Origin: Podarcis liolepis
Taxonomy: Eukaryota
Assembly: GCA_965112155.1 (NCBI GenBank)
Contig: OZ218101.1
Length of the DNA: 64,000 nucleotides
Strand: one strand, 5' to 3'
The stretch's first letter is position 1; every line of letters starts with the position of its first letter. Below the pieces are notes generated by a model. The model searched no databases, was not told the origin of the DNA, and worked only from the letters and a program-made list of their open reading frames with translations. Positions 5,575 through 16,501 of this stretch are shown piece after piece. Made by a program: the position numbers and the translations under genes.

Positions 5575-7114
5575 AGATGGTTCAACAATTCATTTGGATT
5601 ATGGATACTGGGGCCTGCACTGGATAAATAAGGTTGCCAGTAATGATTTTGTCCTTTATGTTTCAGAACCCTGGACTGAATTTTGTAAAGCAAAGTTGAT
5701 GGGTGACATTTTATAAGTCATTACCAACTTGTTCGAGATGGCCTAATATTGCAAGCTACTAGATGGACTTTTACCTGAAGATGGTAATTATTTATCTCCT
5801 TTTCTCATCAATCCTCTCTCCCCCACCCCTAATTATTCCTGGAAACATATCAGCTTTCTGCTGGTTGATAGCCATATTGAATCAGAACAGTTTTATTCCA
5901 AATTATGATGTATTCCATATATATGTAATCACAAATGTTATAACTTTATGTAGCTGTTAGCTCTCTGCAGCAGACTTTTGTTTTATATATTTAGTGTGTT
6001 GTCATTGAAAGCACATTGTGTATAGTTTAGTTTGCATTGCATGCATAATTAAAAAGCTAGATAATTCAGTGCCGCAAGCAAATTGGTGACTTGTGTAACA
6101 AAATAATCAGACAAAATGTACTACTAGTAGTAGTTTCTCCCAATTTCTGTTACATTTCTAGAATGCATTAAACAAGCCACATTAAACAATGCCTGGTGTG
6201 CAGCAGTTCCAGGAACAAAACAGTATTTCATGGTAACATAGAAGCAATCATGATTATGATTCTGGCTTCTGTTTCCTAAATCATTGCACTACCTCAGGCT
6301 TATTCTTCTAGAACTTGTCAATTCAATTTTTATTTCCTGATTAAACTCTTCTTTTTTTCTGGCAACTTCTTTTTGTTTGAGATGTTTTGCGGGTATCTTT
6401 TTACAGCAAAGAAAGCTCCCACCACCGCTAACTGTTTGTCAAGATCATGGCCTGGAAGGGAAGAGTTAAGCCTTTCCTCCATGTGTGCTGCAGACCCACT
6501 AGAAATCACCCCGCCCCCACCCACATTTGCAATTACAATTTTTAAAATTAAAAAATCTGTAGCAAGTTCTTCCTCCTGCGAAATTACTGCTGTTTTCACG
6601 AGGATTTAATACACAAAAAAGGCTTTGGACCTGAAGTGAAGCAGTTGTATTATTGATGGCTCTGACAAGGTGCCCGTGGGGCCTATTTTTAATGTGTGAA
6701 AATTGACAAAACCTTCACCCCCAACCTCTTTCCTATAAACTAGAACAAGCCCTACTCCATCCCCAAATTTCTCCCACCCAGCTCCAAAACAACAAATCCC
6801 CAAATTCCATGCTGTATTTGGATGTTGTTTAGTTTCTTTTTCTTCTTTTCCATTTTTTTTACATTCCTAAGGTTTTATAAGCTTCATTGCCCTTAAGCAA
6901 CTTGCATTTCTTTTTAAGGAAATGTATTACACTACCATAGGAATATTGAATAGTTAATATGTGATTCTGTGATTCTATGTATTCCATTATTTAATGCTAT
7001 TATTAATAAAAATTAATATGTTTATTATCGTTCAGAGACTGTAAGCAATAAAAACAAAACAAAAATTCTTTCTAGCATATGGTTACCAGATTTTTTCAAT
7101 GAATCCATGGACAC

Positions 7115-10207: not shown

Positions 10208-10590
10208 TGTGGGAAGTTGTCCGTGGATAGAAACTGACAAAGGACTTCAATATAAGGGTAACCCTTTTATTAGCGCGTTTGCAAAAGCGGACCCTCCGTA
10301 CCCGTGGATACGAAGAGCCCCGATCTGGTTTCAGCACCGTAGTTTTATCCCTTACTGCCGCCCCTCTTTTGGAGGCTTGGCTTACAATCTACCTATCAGA
10401 GTTTAACACATTTCTAATACATTGTTCAATCTACTCTATTCATATTTACTCCCTTCTCAGTGTGGGCACCACCCTTTGGCTCTCCCTTTCTGGCGTACGC
10501 GACTGTGTTATCTTGTATACATGTCTAGCTCTCAAGGCTGAGTTTGAGGCACGTCCTTTCTGTATGCTTTCATTGTTTCCCAATCTCACA
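10208..10590 (-). repeat. 3' LTR of the provirus
   Basis: Identical to 16119-16501 except T10278 versus C16189. On the minus strand: TATA-like GATAAAA at 10349-10343 and AATAAA at 10271-10266. Confidence 0.97.
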
Positions 10591-10622: not shown

Positions 10623-11597
10623 TCACATAATAACTCCCATATTCGTTCCTCCACATACAAAACAATTTTTCACAGTTAGCTCTTTGGCGATAGTCTCAGC
10701 TAGACTCAAAAACATGTTATGAGCTCTTGGGGGAAGAGGTAATTTATTTAATTGTTGTATTTCTTCTTCAAAGCTCTCAAATACTGAGATTGGCTGTTTG
10801 CTGACCTTAGTAGTATGTACTTTTATGATTAGGTGCCCATAAGGATCCTTCCCATTTCCATCTATCCCCAAACCAAGGTGAATATATTTAGGTCTAGTGG
10901 AAGGGAGTTCCTTAGCCCACAGACATACAGGATTGCATTGTCCTGACCCACAGGCCGTCGAAGCCGCTCCCCTGGTGATATTTATCCCCTTCGGACCCCT
11001 ATATAGGGGTATCTCTTCCACCCCATTTGTATACCAATGGTTCGTCACCCTTGTGGCCCCTATATTGGAACCGGCAGCCTGCTGGAACAGGTACTTATTC
11101 TCTTGGAGATAAGCTCTCTCCCAGCTTAATGACCCACAGGTGACTCCAGCTTGGTCGTTAGGCCCCTGTCCCTTGGTGATAGCAATGCACGCATCAAAAC
11201 AAACATGTATCTTCTCTGTGCCCCTGGTGGAGTTGTGAGCTATATATCCCCGCCTATTTTGTGCTAGGGAAAACATATGTGCCCTTTCACTTGCCTTATT
11301 TGCCGTTCCCCCTTTATTTCCATATACATATATGCTGGAGGTGATAGGTCCCACTGCTAGGGGCTCATAACATTCCGTCTTATTCTCTTTGGTCTTACAT
11401 CTAAGATATTGAGTCTGATTGTGGACACAGGGGTCTAATTCTACTGCACACTCGGGGGCAACATTATAATGCATTAAAGTTCGTGTAATTACTGTCCCAG
11501 TTTTAGTAACTCGGATACATTGGCTGCAGCTCTCATCTTGAATTTCGGTGGCCAGGATACTCCCTAGCATAATCAGGAGGCTGAACCCTGCTATCAT
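10623..11597 (-). CDS. env: Truncated envelope: signal peptide plus SU only (324 aa), ERV3/ENR1-like
   Basis: ATG at 11597 gives MIAGFSLLIMLGSILA (signal peptide). Segments CSQC..TRTLMHY..EC..CVHNQTQY and VFESF..LPPRAHNMFLSLAETIAKEL..CFVCGGTNMG closely parallel human ERV3-1 Env as I recall it. Stop follows the CXXC motif; no furin site, fusion peptide, ISD or TM. Confidence 0.9.
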   Translation of the reverse strand: MIAGFSLLIMLGSILATEIQDESCSQCIRVTKTGTVITRTLMHYNVAPECAVELDPCVHNQTQYLRCKTKENKTECYEPLAVGPITSSIYVYGNKGGTANKASERAHMFSLAQNRRGYIAHNSTRGTEKIHVCFDACIAITKGQGPNDQAGVTCGSLSWERAYLQENKYLFQQAAGSNIGATRVTNHWYTNGVEEIPLYRGPKGINITRGAASTACGSGQCNPVCLWAKELPSTRPKYIHLGLGIDGNGKDPYGHLIIKVHTTKVSKQPISVFESFEEEIQQLNKLPLPPRAHNMFLSLAETIAKELTVKNCFVCGGTNMGVIM

Positions 11598-11818
11598 TGC
11601 CTCCGTCTTAATTGGTTTACTGCTTGCACTACCGTGGGAGTCCAGCTCAGACTGCAATTGACCTCTCCCTCAAGGGTGATGGCACAATATTGTATAATTA
11701 TGTCTTCTATAAAAATTATGTCACACAACTCAGTGCAATGCACACATAACACACAACATTCGCAATGAGCGCAGCAACAGCATTCATAAAAACATTTGCA
11801 AGTACAGAATAGACACAT
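11594..11818 (-). CDS. Candidate Cys-rich retroviral accessory protein (74 aa) between pol and env
   Basis: ATG 5 nt after the pol stop; TGA overlaps the env ATG (ATGA). Fills the whole pol-env gap. 16 Cys, 14 of them in the first 32 aa. Confidence 0.6.
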   Translation of the reverse strand: MCLFCTCKCFYECCCCAHCECCVLCVHCTELCDIIFIEDIIIQYCAITLEGEVNCSLSWTPTVVQAVNQLRRRQ

Positions 11819-11823
11819 CGAGG

Positions 11824-14277
11824 TCAGCGTTTGGATTCTTTCTGGTTCCTGGTTTCCTGATTGGTAAGCGTCACCTTCAGCGGATTATCGGGGTCAACAG
11901 TTACCCTCCAGTCCTGCGGGGCTTTCTTGACCCTGTGATAGTGAGTCCACCCGTGCTCCCTGGTCCTTACTGCAGACTCGGTGGTCAGCAATACCTGGAA
12001 CGGACCTTCCCAAGCAGGGTGCAATTTCTCCGCTTTCCACGCTTTTATCAGGACCCGGTCACCGGGCTGGAATGTATGCTGATGTTCTAGGAGAGGAGGA
12101 TGCTGGACCAAAACACCACGTCTATGGAGAGATAACAAAGACTGGGAGAGTGACTGTAAATATTTTCTTAGGAACAGATCCCTAAATTCTACGAGAGGCT
12201 GTCCCAGCTGGGCCAGGTAGGGTCTCCCTGTCATCAATTCAAAAGGAGAAACTCCCAGGTCCTTTCTCGGCGCCACCCGCATTCTTAATAAAGCCAGTGG
12301 AAGGTTCTTTGTCCAGGGCAACCCATTCTCCAGATATAGTTTAGTCAAGTGCTTTTTAATCTCTGCGTTCGCCCTCTCTACCTTGCCACTACTTTCAGGG
12401 TGCCACGGTGTGTGCAGGTCCCACTTAATTCCCAAGGCTGCCATCACTTCCTGTAAAATCCTTTGAGTGAAGTGGGTGCCTCTATCCGAGTCGATGGCCT
12501 CAATTACACCGTACCGGGGGACTATATGTTCTAAGATGGCTTTAGTCACCACTTGTGCCGTTGCCTTCCTGCTAGGGAAGGCTTCCACCCACCCTGTAAG
12601 ATGATCTTTAAATACCAGCAAATATTTCTGCCCCCCTCTCTCTGGTAGTTCTGTGAAGTCCACCTGTATCCTCTGGAACGGCCAGACTGCGAGGGGTCTT
12701 CCCCCTTTTTCAGTTTTCTTTGCTCTCGTCTTATTTACTTTCTGACAAATTAAACATTTCCAAGCTATCGAATGAGCCATGGGCCACATGTCCTTGCTCC
12801 AATACAGGGGTTTTACCATATTAATCATCGCCTCCGTCCCGAAGTGCCCACTTTCATGTACCTTTTCTAGGATCCCCATCATCGTAGCTTTAGGTATTGC
12901 CATTTGCCCGGTTGGGGTCTCCCAATCACCATTCCTATGTTCCCATCCCTCCTTTCTCATGTAGTCTAATTCTTGAGAGGTAAAAACCAGGTCTCCTGTG
13001 TCTTCTTTAATCAGGACCGGTACCTTCAAACTATATTGCTGGGTTAGTGTGGCGCTAGGGGTATCCCTGGCGGCTTCTTTCGCCCTCAAATCAGCCCACC
13101 TATTTCCCACTTCCGCGGGGCTCATTCCCCTGGTGTGAGCCGGGACGTGGACTACTGCCACCTTTTCTGGTTCCGTGAGGGCGTCTAGTAATCTTTCTAG
13201 TAATGCCATGTGCTCGATTTGTTTTCCATCCGCCTTAATGTACCCTCTGTCTCTCCAAGTTCTACCAAAGGTATGTACCACCCCCCATGCGTAGCGAGAG
13301 TCTGTCCATATAGTCACCTCTAGGCCTCTAGCTAACTCAAGGGCTCGTGTCAGAGCCATGATTTCACATTTCTGAGCCGACCAAGTCGCCGGCAAAGCTC
13401 CACTCTCAAGCACCTCCCCGTCCTCCTTAACTACAGCGTATCCTGACTTTCTTTTCCCCTCTTCAACATAACTAGAACCATCAGTGTACCACCTTTTCCC
13501 CCCCACCAGGGGCATTTCTGACAGATCCTCCCGGACCTTGGACATTAATTGTATAGTACCCATACAGTCATGTTCATCTGGCTCCCACTCTTTTCTCTCT
13601 CCGATCAGAAACTCAGCTGGGTTTAAATTTCGGTCAGTCCCCAAGGTGATGTTGGGGCTTGTTCGTAATATGGTTTCATATTTCACCAAACGACCATCCG
13701 TCATCCATGTGGAGGCCGCCCCAGTCATTATGGTGGATATCTGGTGGGGGCTATGAACTATCAGCGCTCCTCCAAAAGTTAATTTTCTACTCTCAACCAC
13801 CAGTTCAGCTGCAGCTGCCACTGCCTGGATACAAGTGGGCCAGGCTCGTACCACCGGTTCCAAGGTTTTACTGAGGTAGGCAACCGGCTGATATCGCCCC
13901 CCTCTCTTTTGGGCTAAAACCCCCACAGCCGTCTGGGAACTGATCGTCACATATAAGTGGAACGGTTGCTGGAGATTGGGCAATGCCAAAACCGGGGCCC
14001 CGATCAGTGTTCTTTTTATCTCCTCCCATTTTAATTTGTCCTCCTGTTTCCACGTTACCTTTTCGTCCCCAACAAGTTTTTGATTCAAGAACTGAACCAA
14101 TTTTGCGCATTGATCTATCCACAGCCTACAATACCCCAGCAACCCTAACATCCTTCTTACGTCTGTTTTATTCTTAGGGGGTTGCAATTCCAAAATTCCC
14201 TTCACTCTCTTTGTGCCCCCCAATGCATAGCTGTATAAAAGAACTGTGCTTGCATGTGACAAATTGCCAAGCCACAT
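11824..14277 (-). CDS. pol: N-terminally truncated Pol (RT thumb/connection, RNase H, integrase), 817-aa open frame
   Basis: LGLLGYCRLWI (thumb); WYTDGSS/AQKCE/WTDSRYA/HVPAH/GNRWAD (RNase H); HESGH..CLIC (HHCC); QVDFT/DSDRG/KVERAN (DDE); WEGPF. No YxDD palm. The first ~20 aa are non-viral. Confidence 0.93.
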   Translation of the reverse strand: MWLGNLSHASTVLLYSYALGGTKRVKGILELQPPKNKTDVRRMLGLLGYCRLWIDQCAKLVQFLNQKLVGDEKVTWKQEDKLKWEEIKRTLIGAPVLALPNLQQPFHLYVTISSQTAVGVLAQKRGGRYQPVAYLSKTLEPVVRAWPTCIQAVAAAAELVVESRKLTFGGALIVHSPHQISTIMTGAASTWMTDGRLVKYETILRTSPNITLGTDRNLNPAEFLIGERKEWEPDEHDCMGTIQLMSKVREDLSEMPLVGGKRWYTDGSSYVEEGKRKSGYAVVKEDGEVLESGALPATWSAQKCEIMALTRALELARGLEVTIWTDSRYAWGVVHTFGRTWRDRGYIKADGKQIEHMALLERLLDALTEPEKVAVVHVPAHTRGMSPAEVGNRWADLRAKEAARDTPSATLTQQYSLKVPVLIKEDTGDLVFTSQELDYMRKEGWEHRNGDWETPTGQMAIPKATMMGILEKVHESGHFGTEAMINMVKPLYWSKDMWPMAHSIAWKCLICQKVNKTRAKKTEKGGRPLAVWPFQRIQVDFTELPERGGQKYLLVFKDHLTGWVEAFPSRKATAQVVTKAILEHIVPRYGVIEAIDSDRGTHFTQRILQEVMAALGIKWDLHTPWHPESSGKVERANAEIKKHLTKLYLENGLPWTKNLPLALLRMRVAPRKDLGVSPFELMTGRPYLAQLGQPLVEFRDLFLRKYLQSLSQSLLSLHRRGVLVQHPPLLEHQHTFQPGDRVLIKAWKAEKLHPAWEGPFQVLLTTESAVRTREHGWTHYHRVKKAPQDWRVTVDPDNPLKVTLTNQETRNQKESKR

Positions 14278-15390
14278 GAAAAATTAATTTCTCATGGATC
14301 TTTGGCTGCATCTGTTGACCTTTGGTGACTAATGTACCACTTTGGGATTTAGCGCAACATTCCAAGTCCCTGTGCAGTTTTAAAGCTCCAGTTCATATAA
14401 AGACAAAAGGTTTGAAGACTGCCTCCTCTTTCTTTTCTGGAAGTAAATATTCGACTCACATAATAAATATTTGTAGTAGATAAATCATCTGCCTTTTTAA
14501 TCAATAAATTGATTTGCGGATCACTAAACCCTCAATATTTGCACCTCTGAGGAAATAGTAATGAAGCAAGGGATAATTTATAATGTTAAAAACAAAAGCC
14601 TCCACTTTTCTAAAACAAAAATAACATATAGAATAATACAGAATCAATGTAGTGATTAAACAGACTGTGCTATGCAAACCTAGGTGGAAAGAAAGTGCAT
14701 CCTAACATATCCAAATTATTGGATCCTCCCTCAGTTATAGAACATATATTCTCTGTTGTCTGAGAATGAATAATATTAGAACTAACAAAAACAAATTCTA
14801 TGTTTCAGCATTCATAGTTGCTTTTATCACCAGGTGGTGATCTCAAACACTTCATTTTGCAAATGAAGTCTATTGAAATCAAATTTCTGTTTTCTTCAAC
14901 TATGCCTGTTCCAGGCTATGGCAGTATTTATATACAGTGGTACCTTGGGTTACATACGCTTCAGGTTAAGAACAGACCTCTGGAACGAATTAAGTTCCTA
15001 ACCCGAGGTGCCACTGTACTAGTTTTAGACAGCCAGCATGATGCAGTGACTCTAGAGGTGGCTATAGACTGCAACTGACCAGACTCAGGTTCAAATCTCA
15101 CTTGGTGACCTTGAGCAATCCATTCTCTCTTAGGCAGAAATCCTATGCAGAAGAACCCAGCATAAGTTAAGCCTGTGTTAAATAAACTGGCTCCAAATTC
15201 CATTCAGCAGTGGAGCTACCACGGGCTGAGCTGTTCTAAGCCAGGCAGAGGAAAAAAAGAGTATCTAAAATAGAGTTAGAATTACGTCATCCAGTTTGAG
15301 TTACACCACCTGTATTTCTGCCACCTTCATTTATGTCGAGTTTTGAGGTCATGTGACTGAGCTGATCAAGCTCAGGATCCAGCCTTAGTC
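14222..15390. other. Non-retroviral (host-derived) insert replacing most of gag, pro and the RT core
   Basis: AT-rich with no retroviral motifs. Contains a mariner/pogo-type MITE, a SINE-like remnant (~15080-15130) and a segment matching host sequence at 30506-30549. Junctions are approximate. Confidence 0.85.
14935..15016. mobile_element. Short Tc1/mariner-pogo-type MITE inside the proviral insert
   Basis: TA|CAGTGGTACC...GGTGCCACTG|TA. Same family as 58565-58791 and ~60780-60884. Confidence 0.85.
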
Positions 15391-15613
15391 TCCCCCTCAG
15401 GGTTCCAATTATACATTCCATCCGGCCCTATAGGGGGTATTTTGGCCAAACCACCCTACAGAAATTAATCATAGTCACTTTTGACAAGCCTATTGTATAT
15501 TGTCTCGGATAGTCCTCATCCCATTGCATCAGTATTTGTCCTAATGGACTATTAGGATCAATAGGACCCTTCCCATTTGAATCCTTCTGTCGTTTACTCT
15601 GACCCTTACCCAT
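15390..15613 (-). pseudogene. gag: gag 5' remnant (matrix N-terminus), frameshifted and truncated
   Basis: MGKGQSK (myristoylation) ..SPLGQILMQW..FCRVVWPKYP. After a frameshift in a C run it continues IGPDGMYNWNPEG, resembling the gamma-like matrix WPxEG motif, then host sequence. Confidence 0.85.
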
Positions 15614-16094: not shown

Positions 16095-16113
16095 GCCCCA
16101 CGTTGGGGCGCCA
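16095..16113 (-). promoter_or_regulatory. Primer-binding site, tRNA-Lys(CUU)/Lys1,2 type with one extra C
   Basis: Minus-strand TGGCGCCCCAACGTGGGGC, 5 nt after the 5' LTR. The canonical Lys1,2 PBS is TGGCGCCCAACGTGGGGC. Confidence 0.88.
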
Positions 16114-16118
16114 AAAGT

Positions 16119-16501
16119 TGTGGGAAGTTGTCCGTGGATAGAAACTGACAAAGGACTTCAATATAAGGGTAACCCTTTTATTAGCGCGCTTGCAAAAGCG
16201 GACCCTCCGTACCCGTGGATACGAAGAGCCCCGATCTGGTTTCAGCACCGTAGTTTTATCCCTTACTGCCGCCCCTCTTTTGGAGGCTTGGCTTACAATC
16301 TACCTATCAGAGTTTAACACATTTCTAATACATTGTTCAATCTACTCTATTCATATTTACTCCCTTCTCAGTGTGGGCACCACCCTTTGGCTCTCCCTTT
16401 CTGGCGTACGCGACTGTGTTATCTTGTATACATGTCTAGCTCTCAAGGCTGAGTTTGAGGCACGTCCTTTCTGTATGCTTTCATTGTTTCCCAATCTCAC
16501 A
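16119..16501 (-). repeat. 5' LTR of the provirus (promoter)
   Basis: 383 bp, TG...CA, one mismatch to the 3' LTR, followed by the PBS. TATA-like GATAAAA at 16260-16254. Confidence 0.97.

Follow-up and report, generated by a model that had tools for sequence, protein, structure and literature searches.

The python endogenous retrovirus (PyERV) has, in the interval from pol to env, genes whose function is not known, FIV OrfA is a Cys-containing accessory protein of about 77 amino acid residues, HIV-1 Vpu has an N-terminal transmembrane helix, and ORF3 of hepatitis E virus carries a palmitoylated N-terminal Cys string. Tat is described, in the accessible part of PMC2739156, as a small basic protein that binds TAR, and the vpu/env bicistronic RNAs of HIV-1 are a precedent for a small protein made from the env mRNA (PMC3185809, accessible part). 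AUGA overlaps are typical of termination-reinitiation, for which a UGGGA motif 40–90 nt before the stop has been described (PMC3542737, accessible part), and the accessible text of bioRxiv 2021.11.23.469661 treats gamma-related viruses of class I as simple ones built of gag, pol and env.

In the openly accessible literature searched, we found no description of a pol-env ORF such as the one presented here. This holds for the accessible parts of PMC4299795, PMC5388530, PMC12690878, PMC8922424, PMC9723728, PMC8672886, bioRxiv 2021.11.23.469661 and bioRxiv 2024.03.17.585361, the last of which defines the EnvR supergroup and, in the same accessible text, describes no ORF upstream of env. The ORF was identified in a 64,000-nt stretch of Podarcis liolepis DNA (contig OZ218101.1, assembly GCA_965112155.1), referred to as the window.

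Position and composition of the accessory ORF

The accessory ORF is read from 11818 to 11594 on the minus strand, the plus-strand reading containing three stops. The pol frame ends at 11824 and the ORF ATG follows after 5 nt, while env starts at 11597, with the ORF stop and the env ATG overlapping as ATGA. The original prediction had described a 74-codon ORF in exactly this arrangement, with 14 Cys in its first 32 residues and the motifs CxxCxC, CCxHCxxC and CxHC; all of this was recovered on the minus-strand translation. A chance origin is unlikely in view of the shuffle controls, in which the interval was kept open over 73 codons in 84 of 5000 dinucleotide shuffles (counting any of the three frames) and 14 Cys in a stop-free frame were never reached when the first 96 nt were shuffled 5000 times (maximum 13). 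Across the six frames of the whole 64 kb window, the only stop-free 32-codon stretch with at least 12 Cys is that of the ORF.

Table 1. Features of the window provirus and of the accessory ORF (positions in the window)
Feature	Position	Strand	Remarks
Cys/His-rich accessory ORF (P0001), 74 aa	11594..11818	minus	Cys-string module 1–32; predicted helix-hairpin-helix module 37–73
5' LTR, 383 nt	16119..16501	minus	R-region hairpin ~16200–16232; 4-bp target-site duplication AGAG
3' LTR	10208..10590	minus	1 mismatch vs 5' LTR
Primer-binding site	16095..16113	minus	putative tRNA-Lys1,2 type
gag 5'-end remnant	15388..15613	minus	followed by non-viral insert
Non-viral insert, replacing the greater part of gag, pro and RT-N	~14209–15387
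pol 3' part (RT C-terminus, RNase H, integrase), class I/gamma-like	11824..14208	minus	open frame from 14283
env, EnvR/ERV3-type, 324 aa, ending after the SU CXXC motif, no TM	10623..11597	minus	ATG overlaps ORF stop
Splice acceptor (pyrimidine tract + AG) in integrase	12122..12141	minus	303 nt upstream of ORF ATG; AG at 12123–12122
GT..AG stretch, 471 nt, exactly missing from 9/9 sister (A2) copies	12122..12592	minus	fossil splice ending at the acceptor

Host provirus and virus class

The provirus spans 16501 to 10208. It is bounded by LTRs of 383 nt and flanked by the target-site duplication AGAG, and the insertion is young, since its LTRs differ at a single site. Its primer-binding site (16095–16113) is one that we take to be of the tRNA-Lys1,2 type, which is unusual for a gamma-like virus. 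This copy is defective, a point absent from the original prediction, as gag, pro and the N-terminal part of RT are mostly replaced and env lacks TM; the complete gag-pol-ORF-env layout was observed in sister copies. Within the insert, a short repeat (~14930–15018) is covered by RNA reads that match in part and stem from elsewhere in the genome, in their thousands.

The window provirus is also a mosaic (11000–12200 compared with L055, L058 and L060): its pol is nearly identical to that of lineage B, its ORF and signal peptide are identical to those of A2, and its later SU is nearly identical to that of lineage C (lineages are defined below). The truncation of env after the SU CXXC motif (10623–10660 in the window; also L058 and L060), joined to the 3' end, is common to the window, A2 and C. 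The window and C retain a signal peptide and an open SU of 324–331 residues, which could be a secreted receptor-binding protein.

The best PDB matches of pol are RTs of the MLV/XMRV-type p80 (E 1e-150), HIV-1 RT being matched at 1e-24, and we detected MLVIN_C, Gag_p30 and a single zf-CCHC domain, with gag and pol in one frame across a TAG. By these domain matches, the host virus is classed as a class I (gamma-like) ERV. Envelopes of the EnvR supergroup are defined by a CX7-9CC motif in TM, and those of its group 4 by their CXXC spacing (bioRxiv 2024.03.17.585361, accessible part). In lineage B, the env TM has C-x7-CC at residue 584, and CXXC is found at residue 315 with the cleavage site around 170 residues further on; on these motifs, the envelope is assigned to the EnvR supergroup, as ERV3-type (CX7CC) with a group 4 layout. 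Among named envelopes, the nearest is from Zootoca vivipara ('ERV3 member 1 Env'), at 71% identity. The predicted placement in a gamma-like lizard ERV is thus upheld by a class I pol and by the lacertid origin of the closest named env.

Copies, lineages and homologues

We were able to identify at least 16 proviral loci of the family in the same genome (17 matches, one locus being split). The ORF is present in 15 of these loci and open in all 15, which belong to lineages A (10 copies, including the window), B (four) and C (one); identity to the window protein is 64% for B and 62% for C. In the remaining relative, copy D, env directly follows pol. Trees built for gain versus loss of the ORF in D gave an env tree with none of four inner branches supported and an integrase tree in which the branching of C, D and the window plus B was not separated. 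Along the provirus, sliding identity indicates that the divergence of the ORF follows that of the env 5' end and not that of pol. Related proviruses had been proposed as a test of the prediction, and in them the ORF is open in 15/15 carriers with its Cys conserved, one related copy having no ORF. Host-gene capture was considered and rejected, as the sole non-ERV match in the genome is weak (L054, E 0.025, three stops).

Outside this genome, HMMER retrieved exactly one match among 1.84 billion representatives (P0010, 55 aa, E 7.7e-13), which stems from a Logan contig of 1968 nt. Since the Podarcis genome matches P0010 at only 55–58%, this sequence comes from another genome. P0010 aligns to residues 23–71 and keeps C25, H27, C28, C32, C45, C55 and TPTV.QA, and these same positions are among the 21 columns invariant over four sequences. 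The greater part of the lineage-B ORF is also present, ungapped and with 18 differences, in a contig from a DNA run labelled as another organism. P0001–P0003 are absent among 15 billion called proteins, and a word-index protein search with a three-sequence alignment gave three candidates, none of which scored; the same held for the 869 candidates of a word-index search for longer or fused forms. No homologues were found in viral contigs and metagenome contigs, and in the ESM Atlas P0001 had no usable match, the best for P0010 being 0.81, below lead level.

Coding constraint

Pairwise NG86 comparisons gave pS 0.83 and pN 0.21 for A vs B, pS 0.83 and pN 0.24 for A vs C, and pS 0.27 and pN 0.08 for B vs C, where the first 33 codons hold five synonymous and no non-synonymous differences. 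With an ML codon model (7 of the 15 copies, 73 codons), omega was 0.21 for the whole ORF, 0.054 for the first 32 codons and 0.35 for the rest, the value for env SU being 0.185; omega = 1 was rejected by likelihood-ratio test in each case (p = 2e-8 for the whole ORF, 5e-6 for the first 32 codons and 0.002 for the rest). Purifying selection thus acts on the ORF with about the same strength as on env. Between lineages A and B, TGT and TGC are exchanged at six of the 15 conserved Cys codons, so it is the Cys themselves that are conserved and not the TG-rich DNA; the remaining five frames contain stops in at least one member of each compared pair. The caveat attached to the original prediction, that TG-rich DNA yields Cys codons by chance, is refuted by this pattern, and the proposed dN/dS check agrees with its central claim that a gamma-like ERV of a lizard holds an accessory ORF coding for protein. 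We are highly confident that the ORF is a real gene.

Predicted protein

The proteins of the three lineages have a pI of 4.4–4.8, 3–4 Lys plus Arg, 16–17 Cys and 2 His, with 17 Cys/His ligand positions conserved in A, B and C. No clear transmembrane segment, and in particular no Vpu-like N-terminal helix, was found, the maximal KD19 of 1.3–1.7 lying in Cys-rich parts and being driven by Cys, and none appears in the AlphaFold2 model, which is of low confidence in that region. In this model, computed on four sequences (mean pLDDT 56.8), residues 1–35 are not resolved (pLDDT < 50), and residues 37–73 are predicted as helix, hairpin and helix (pLDDT 70–80), the hairpin strands 45–47 and 53–55 bearing C45 and C55.

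Searches of Pfam gave no family for P0001 (E ≤ 1) or for P0002 and P0003 (E ≤ 10), with RING, LIM and metallothionein likewise without a match, and the terminal CxxC pair of RING/LIM was not seen by eye. Among PDB sequences (E ≤ 10), P0001 had no match and the profile had a single unrelated one (pectate lyase, E 0.17), and of the 454 matches that Foldseek gave against viral structures none was at E ≤ 0.001 (best E 0.92). On chemical grounds that are well established, CxHC/HCxxC pairs in a cytoplasmic protein most likely bind zinc, and an N-terminal MC plus CCCC string amid hydrophobic residues is a common site of S-acylation. From its motifs, the ORF product is thus likely to bind zinc and is perhaps palmitoylated. 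The best reading is that of a new protein family, a Cys/His-rich accessory protein, that is, a known kind of gene in an unexpected group of viruses.

Splice acceptor, start codons and expression

Equivalents of the integrase acceptor (Table 1) were identified in all four lineages (A as represented by the window, B, C and the ORF-less D), where they rank first, or joint first, on a crude score. In D, the first AUG after this site is that of env, which argues for the integrase acceptor being the env acceptor; in lineage A, the first AUG is that of the ORF. The A2 copies descend from a spliced RNA, since they have lost exactly a GT..AG stretch and their junction keeps one G more than a microhomology deletion would. 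In these copies, from which the acceptor has gone by splicing, a new acceptor-like site is located upstream (L060, ~6615–6645), and it includes a nearly identical version of that pyrimidine tract.

In the three lineages, the ORF AUG is in a weak context, with a pyrimidine at -3 and U at +4, and the env AUG has a purine at -3. The ORF stop and the env start are at most 4 nt apart in the same lineages (ATGA; TAA-t-ATG), with unlike frame offsets. Frameshift fusion of the ORF to Env was ruled out, as the ORF-env offset in A differs from that in B/C. Between the ORF start and env there are 1–5 internal AUGs, and upstream of the ORF there is one AUG in lineage B and three in lineage C (one in strong context), which together put a strain on pure leaky scanning. 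A further candidate acceptor lies within the ORF (+190 in B), and env might be spliced to it on its own.

The RNA data comprised 6–13% of each of four raw runs, labelled as related or the same species and of unknown tissue; mean depth over the ORF was 0–0.47, and no leader-to-acceptor splice joint was seen in these reads. Two contig sets that can only be presumed to be RNA extend into or across the ORF with no splice joint and are not counted as expression. The arrangement of acceptor and start codons suggests that the ORF is probably made from the env-acceptor mRNA.

Proposed mechanism and alternative explanations

We propose that the ORF is a coding accessory gene of an EnvR-type class I lizard retrovirus, expressed from a singly spliced env mRNA, and that its product is a zinc-binding, possibly palmitoylated adaptor acting with Env, a proposal for and against which we see about equal grounds. 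Splicing to the integrase acceptor would produce a bicistronic RNA, whose first AUG, in weak context, would give the accessory protein, and env would be reached by leaky scanning or stop-start reinitiation. Zinc would be held by H18/C19/C22, C25/H27/C28, C32, C45 and C55, and the N-terminal MC..CCCC string would be S-acylated. Acylation may then tether the conserved C-terminal helix (TPTVxQA..L) at membranes, where it could bind a viral or host partner in Env trafficking, release or counter-defence, the adaptor acting together with Env late in infection. Since one related copy has no ORF, the gene is possibly dispensable.

For the class of function, our tentative choice, held slightly less firmly than the proposal as a whole, is a cytoplasmic, zinc-binding and probably membrane-tethered adaptor made with Env, which we rank ahead of a soluble adaptor, a Tat-like protein and a regulatory upstream ORF (uORF). 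The soluble adaptor, for which we see some but limited likelihood, would be a zinc-finger protein directed against a host restriction factor, resembling Vif, Vpx or paramyxovirus V in its mode of action but not by descent, and having no special tie to Env or membranes. It is in keeping with the 17 conserved Cys/His ligands, the prediction of a small acidic cytoplasmic protein, the modelled amphipathic C-terminal helix that is conserved, and the faster divergence of the C-terminal half (omega 0.35 vs 0.054); nevertheless, no BC-box or known ligase-recruiting motif was recognised by eye, four sequences gave no detectable positive selection, and there is no fold match among viral structures.

The original prediction had raised the possibility of a transactivator, and a Tat-like or other nuclear LTR transactivator, with the Cys-rich core recruiting a host elongation or transcription factor, would agree with the slot between pol and env and with the retention of CxxCxC and CCxHCxxC in all three lineages, as well as with the LTR R-region hairpin (14 bp, between a TATA-like box and the poly(A) signal, z -2.5), and an acidic, activation-only protein is conceivable. 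However, the Tat core CxxCxCxxCCxHCxxC is not contiguous, its two halves being 7 residues apart with three further Cys between them, and the RRR tail is replaced by KELEET and KELENV in the B and C lineages and by RWR in 3/10 lineage-A copies; both points had been anticipated as caveats, the loss of RRR in B and C adding to the second. There is no conserved basic region, and the pI of 4.4–4.8 departs from the basic Tat (PMC2739156, accessible part), neither Pfam nor PDB gives a Tat match, the hairpin is unbulged and has an equivalent in the ORF-less copy, and the presumed co-expression with Env suggests a late product. The transactivator reading is not supported: by its sequence the product is not a member of the Tat family, and a transactivator of any such kind seems improbable.

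We give a similarly low rank to a uORF tuning Env translation by reinitiation or stalling, whose peptide would matter little or only in the ribosome. Such a role fits the ORF AUG being first after the acceptor, the stop-start coupling with env kept in three lineages and an AUGA overlap of the type known from termination-reinitiation (PMC3542737, accessible part), but not the amino acid constraint over all 73 codons at near-saturated synonymous sites or the predicted folded C-terminal module (pLDDT 70–80), and the calicivirus-type UGGGA motif is absent, by eye, from the last 90 nt in lineages A, B and C. An even simpler explanation, by which the ORF arose by chance in a TG-rich spacer or as a side effect of constraint on the RNA, could appeal to the base composition, to the one related copy with no ORF and to the near lack of RNA reads; we consider it highly improbable, as it is contradicted by the omega of 0.21 (p = 2e-8), by a codon-level pattern that already refutes it, by the shuffle controls and by the independent homologue P0010.

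Other families and implications

In the same genome, a second class I ERV family has an unrelated ORF of around 117 codons from its ATG between pol and env (L069:1963–2349; ~1959–2339 in L070–L073, proviral sense), with a shared YSCGCM motif. It is open in 4/4 L070-type copies, and over 94 aligned codons pS is 0.70 vs a pN of 0.41; in L069, the start is not in frame, and the ORF stop and the env ATG overlap as ATGA. The env leader of L069/L070 (EEPWxxWxWW..C.ALII.M..YFCWHE) is common to the Zootoca ERV3-type Env (P0005, residues 1–65), the env bodies being different, which suggests that pre-env/leader cassettes may have been swapped between families. A large young gamma-like family (L075–L091, on many contigs; more than 100 listed copies) has, in most copies, an open pol of 1198 codons and an env frame of 484 codons, with a short pol-env gap and no clear ORF in it.

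Should a second class I family of this genome also hold an ORF there, unrelated to the first, the arrangement would be a recurring rule. We also considered a broader and more speculative reading, which we hold to be possible but rather doubtful: EnvR-type lizard class I viruses would be cryptically complex, with exchangeable pol-env cassettes fed by the env acceptor and coupled by stop-start, and the cassette studied here would encode a new zinc-protein family with an independent Tat-like Cys core recruiting a host factor (transcriptional or antiviral). That a reptile lineage active until recently carries a selected accessory gene belonging to no known family shows that the split between simple and complex retroviruses does not run along class, and the data point to an independently evolving vpu-env-like expression strategy. 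The protein also offers a new small protein for tests of host-virus conflict in reptiles, and, because standard ERV annotation misses this ORF, a re-scan of other class I ERVs for ORFs in the short interval from pol to env is warranted.

Comparison with known systems

With EnvR supergroup ERVs (relatives of ERV3-1/HERV-R), the lizard virus has in common CX7CC, CXXC and the cleavage-site spacing; the env of Zootoca vivipara differs from that of the present family in its leader, which is longer and different. Lentiviral Tat is also small, Cys-rich, located in the pol-env slot and endowed with two conserved Cys half-motifs, whereas the lizard ORF is acidic, belongs to a class I virus, has no conserved Arg-rich domain and twice the Cys, has no Pfam/PDB match, and is a single exon whose stop is kept in all copies. 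HIV-1 Vpu is a lentiviral membrane protein, unlike the Cys/His-rich lizard product, which has no clear transmembrane segment and no sequence match to it; nevertheless, the two have in common a small ORF directly upstream of env and, presumably in the lizard virus, the sharing of the env mRNA (PMC3185809, accessible part).
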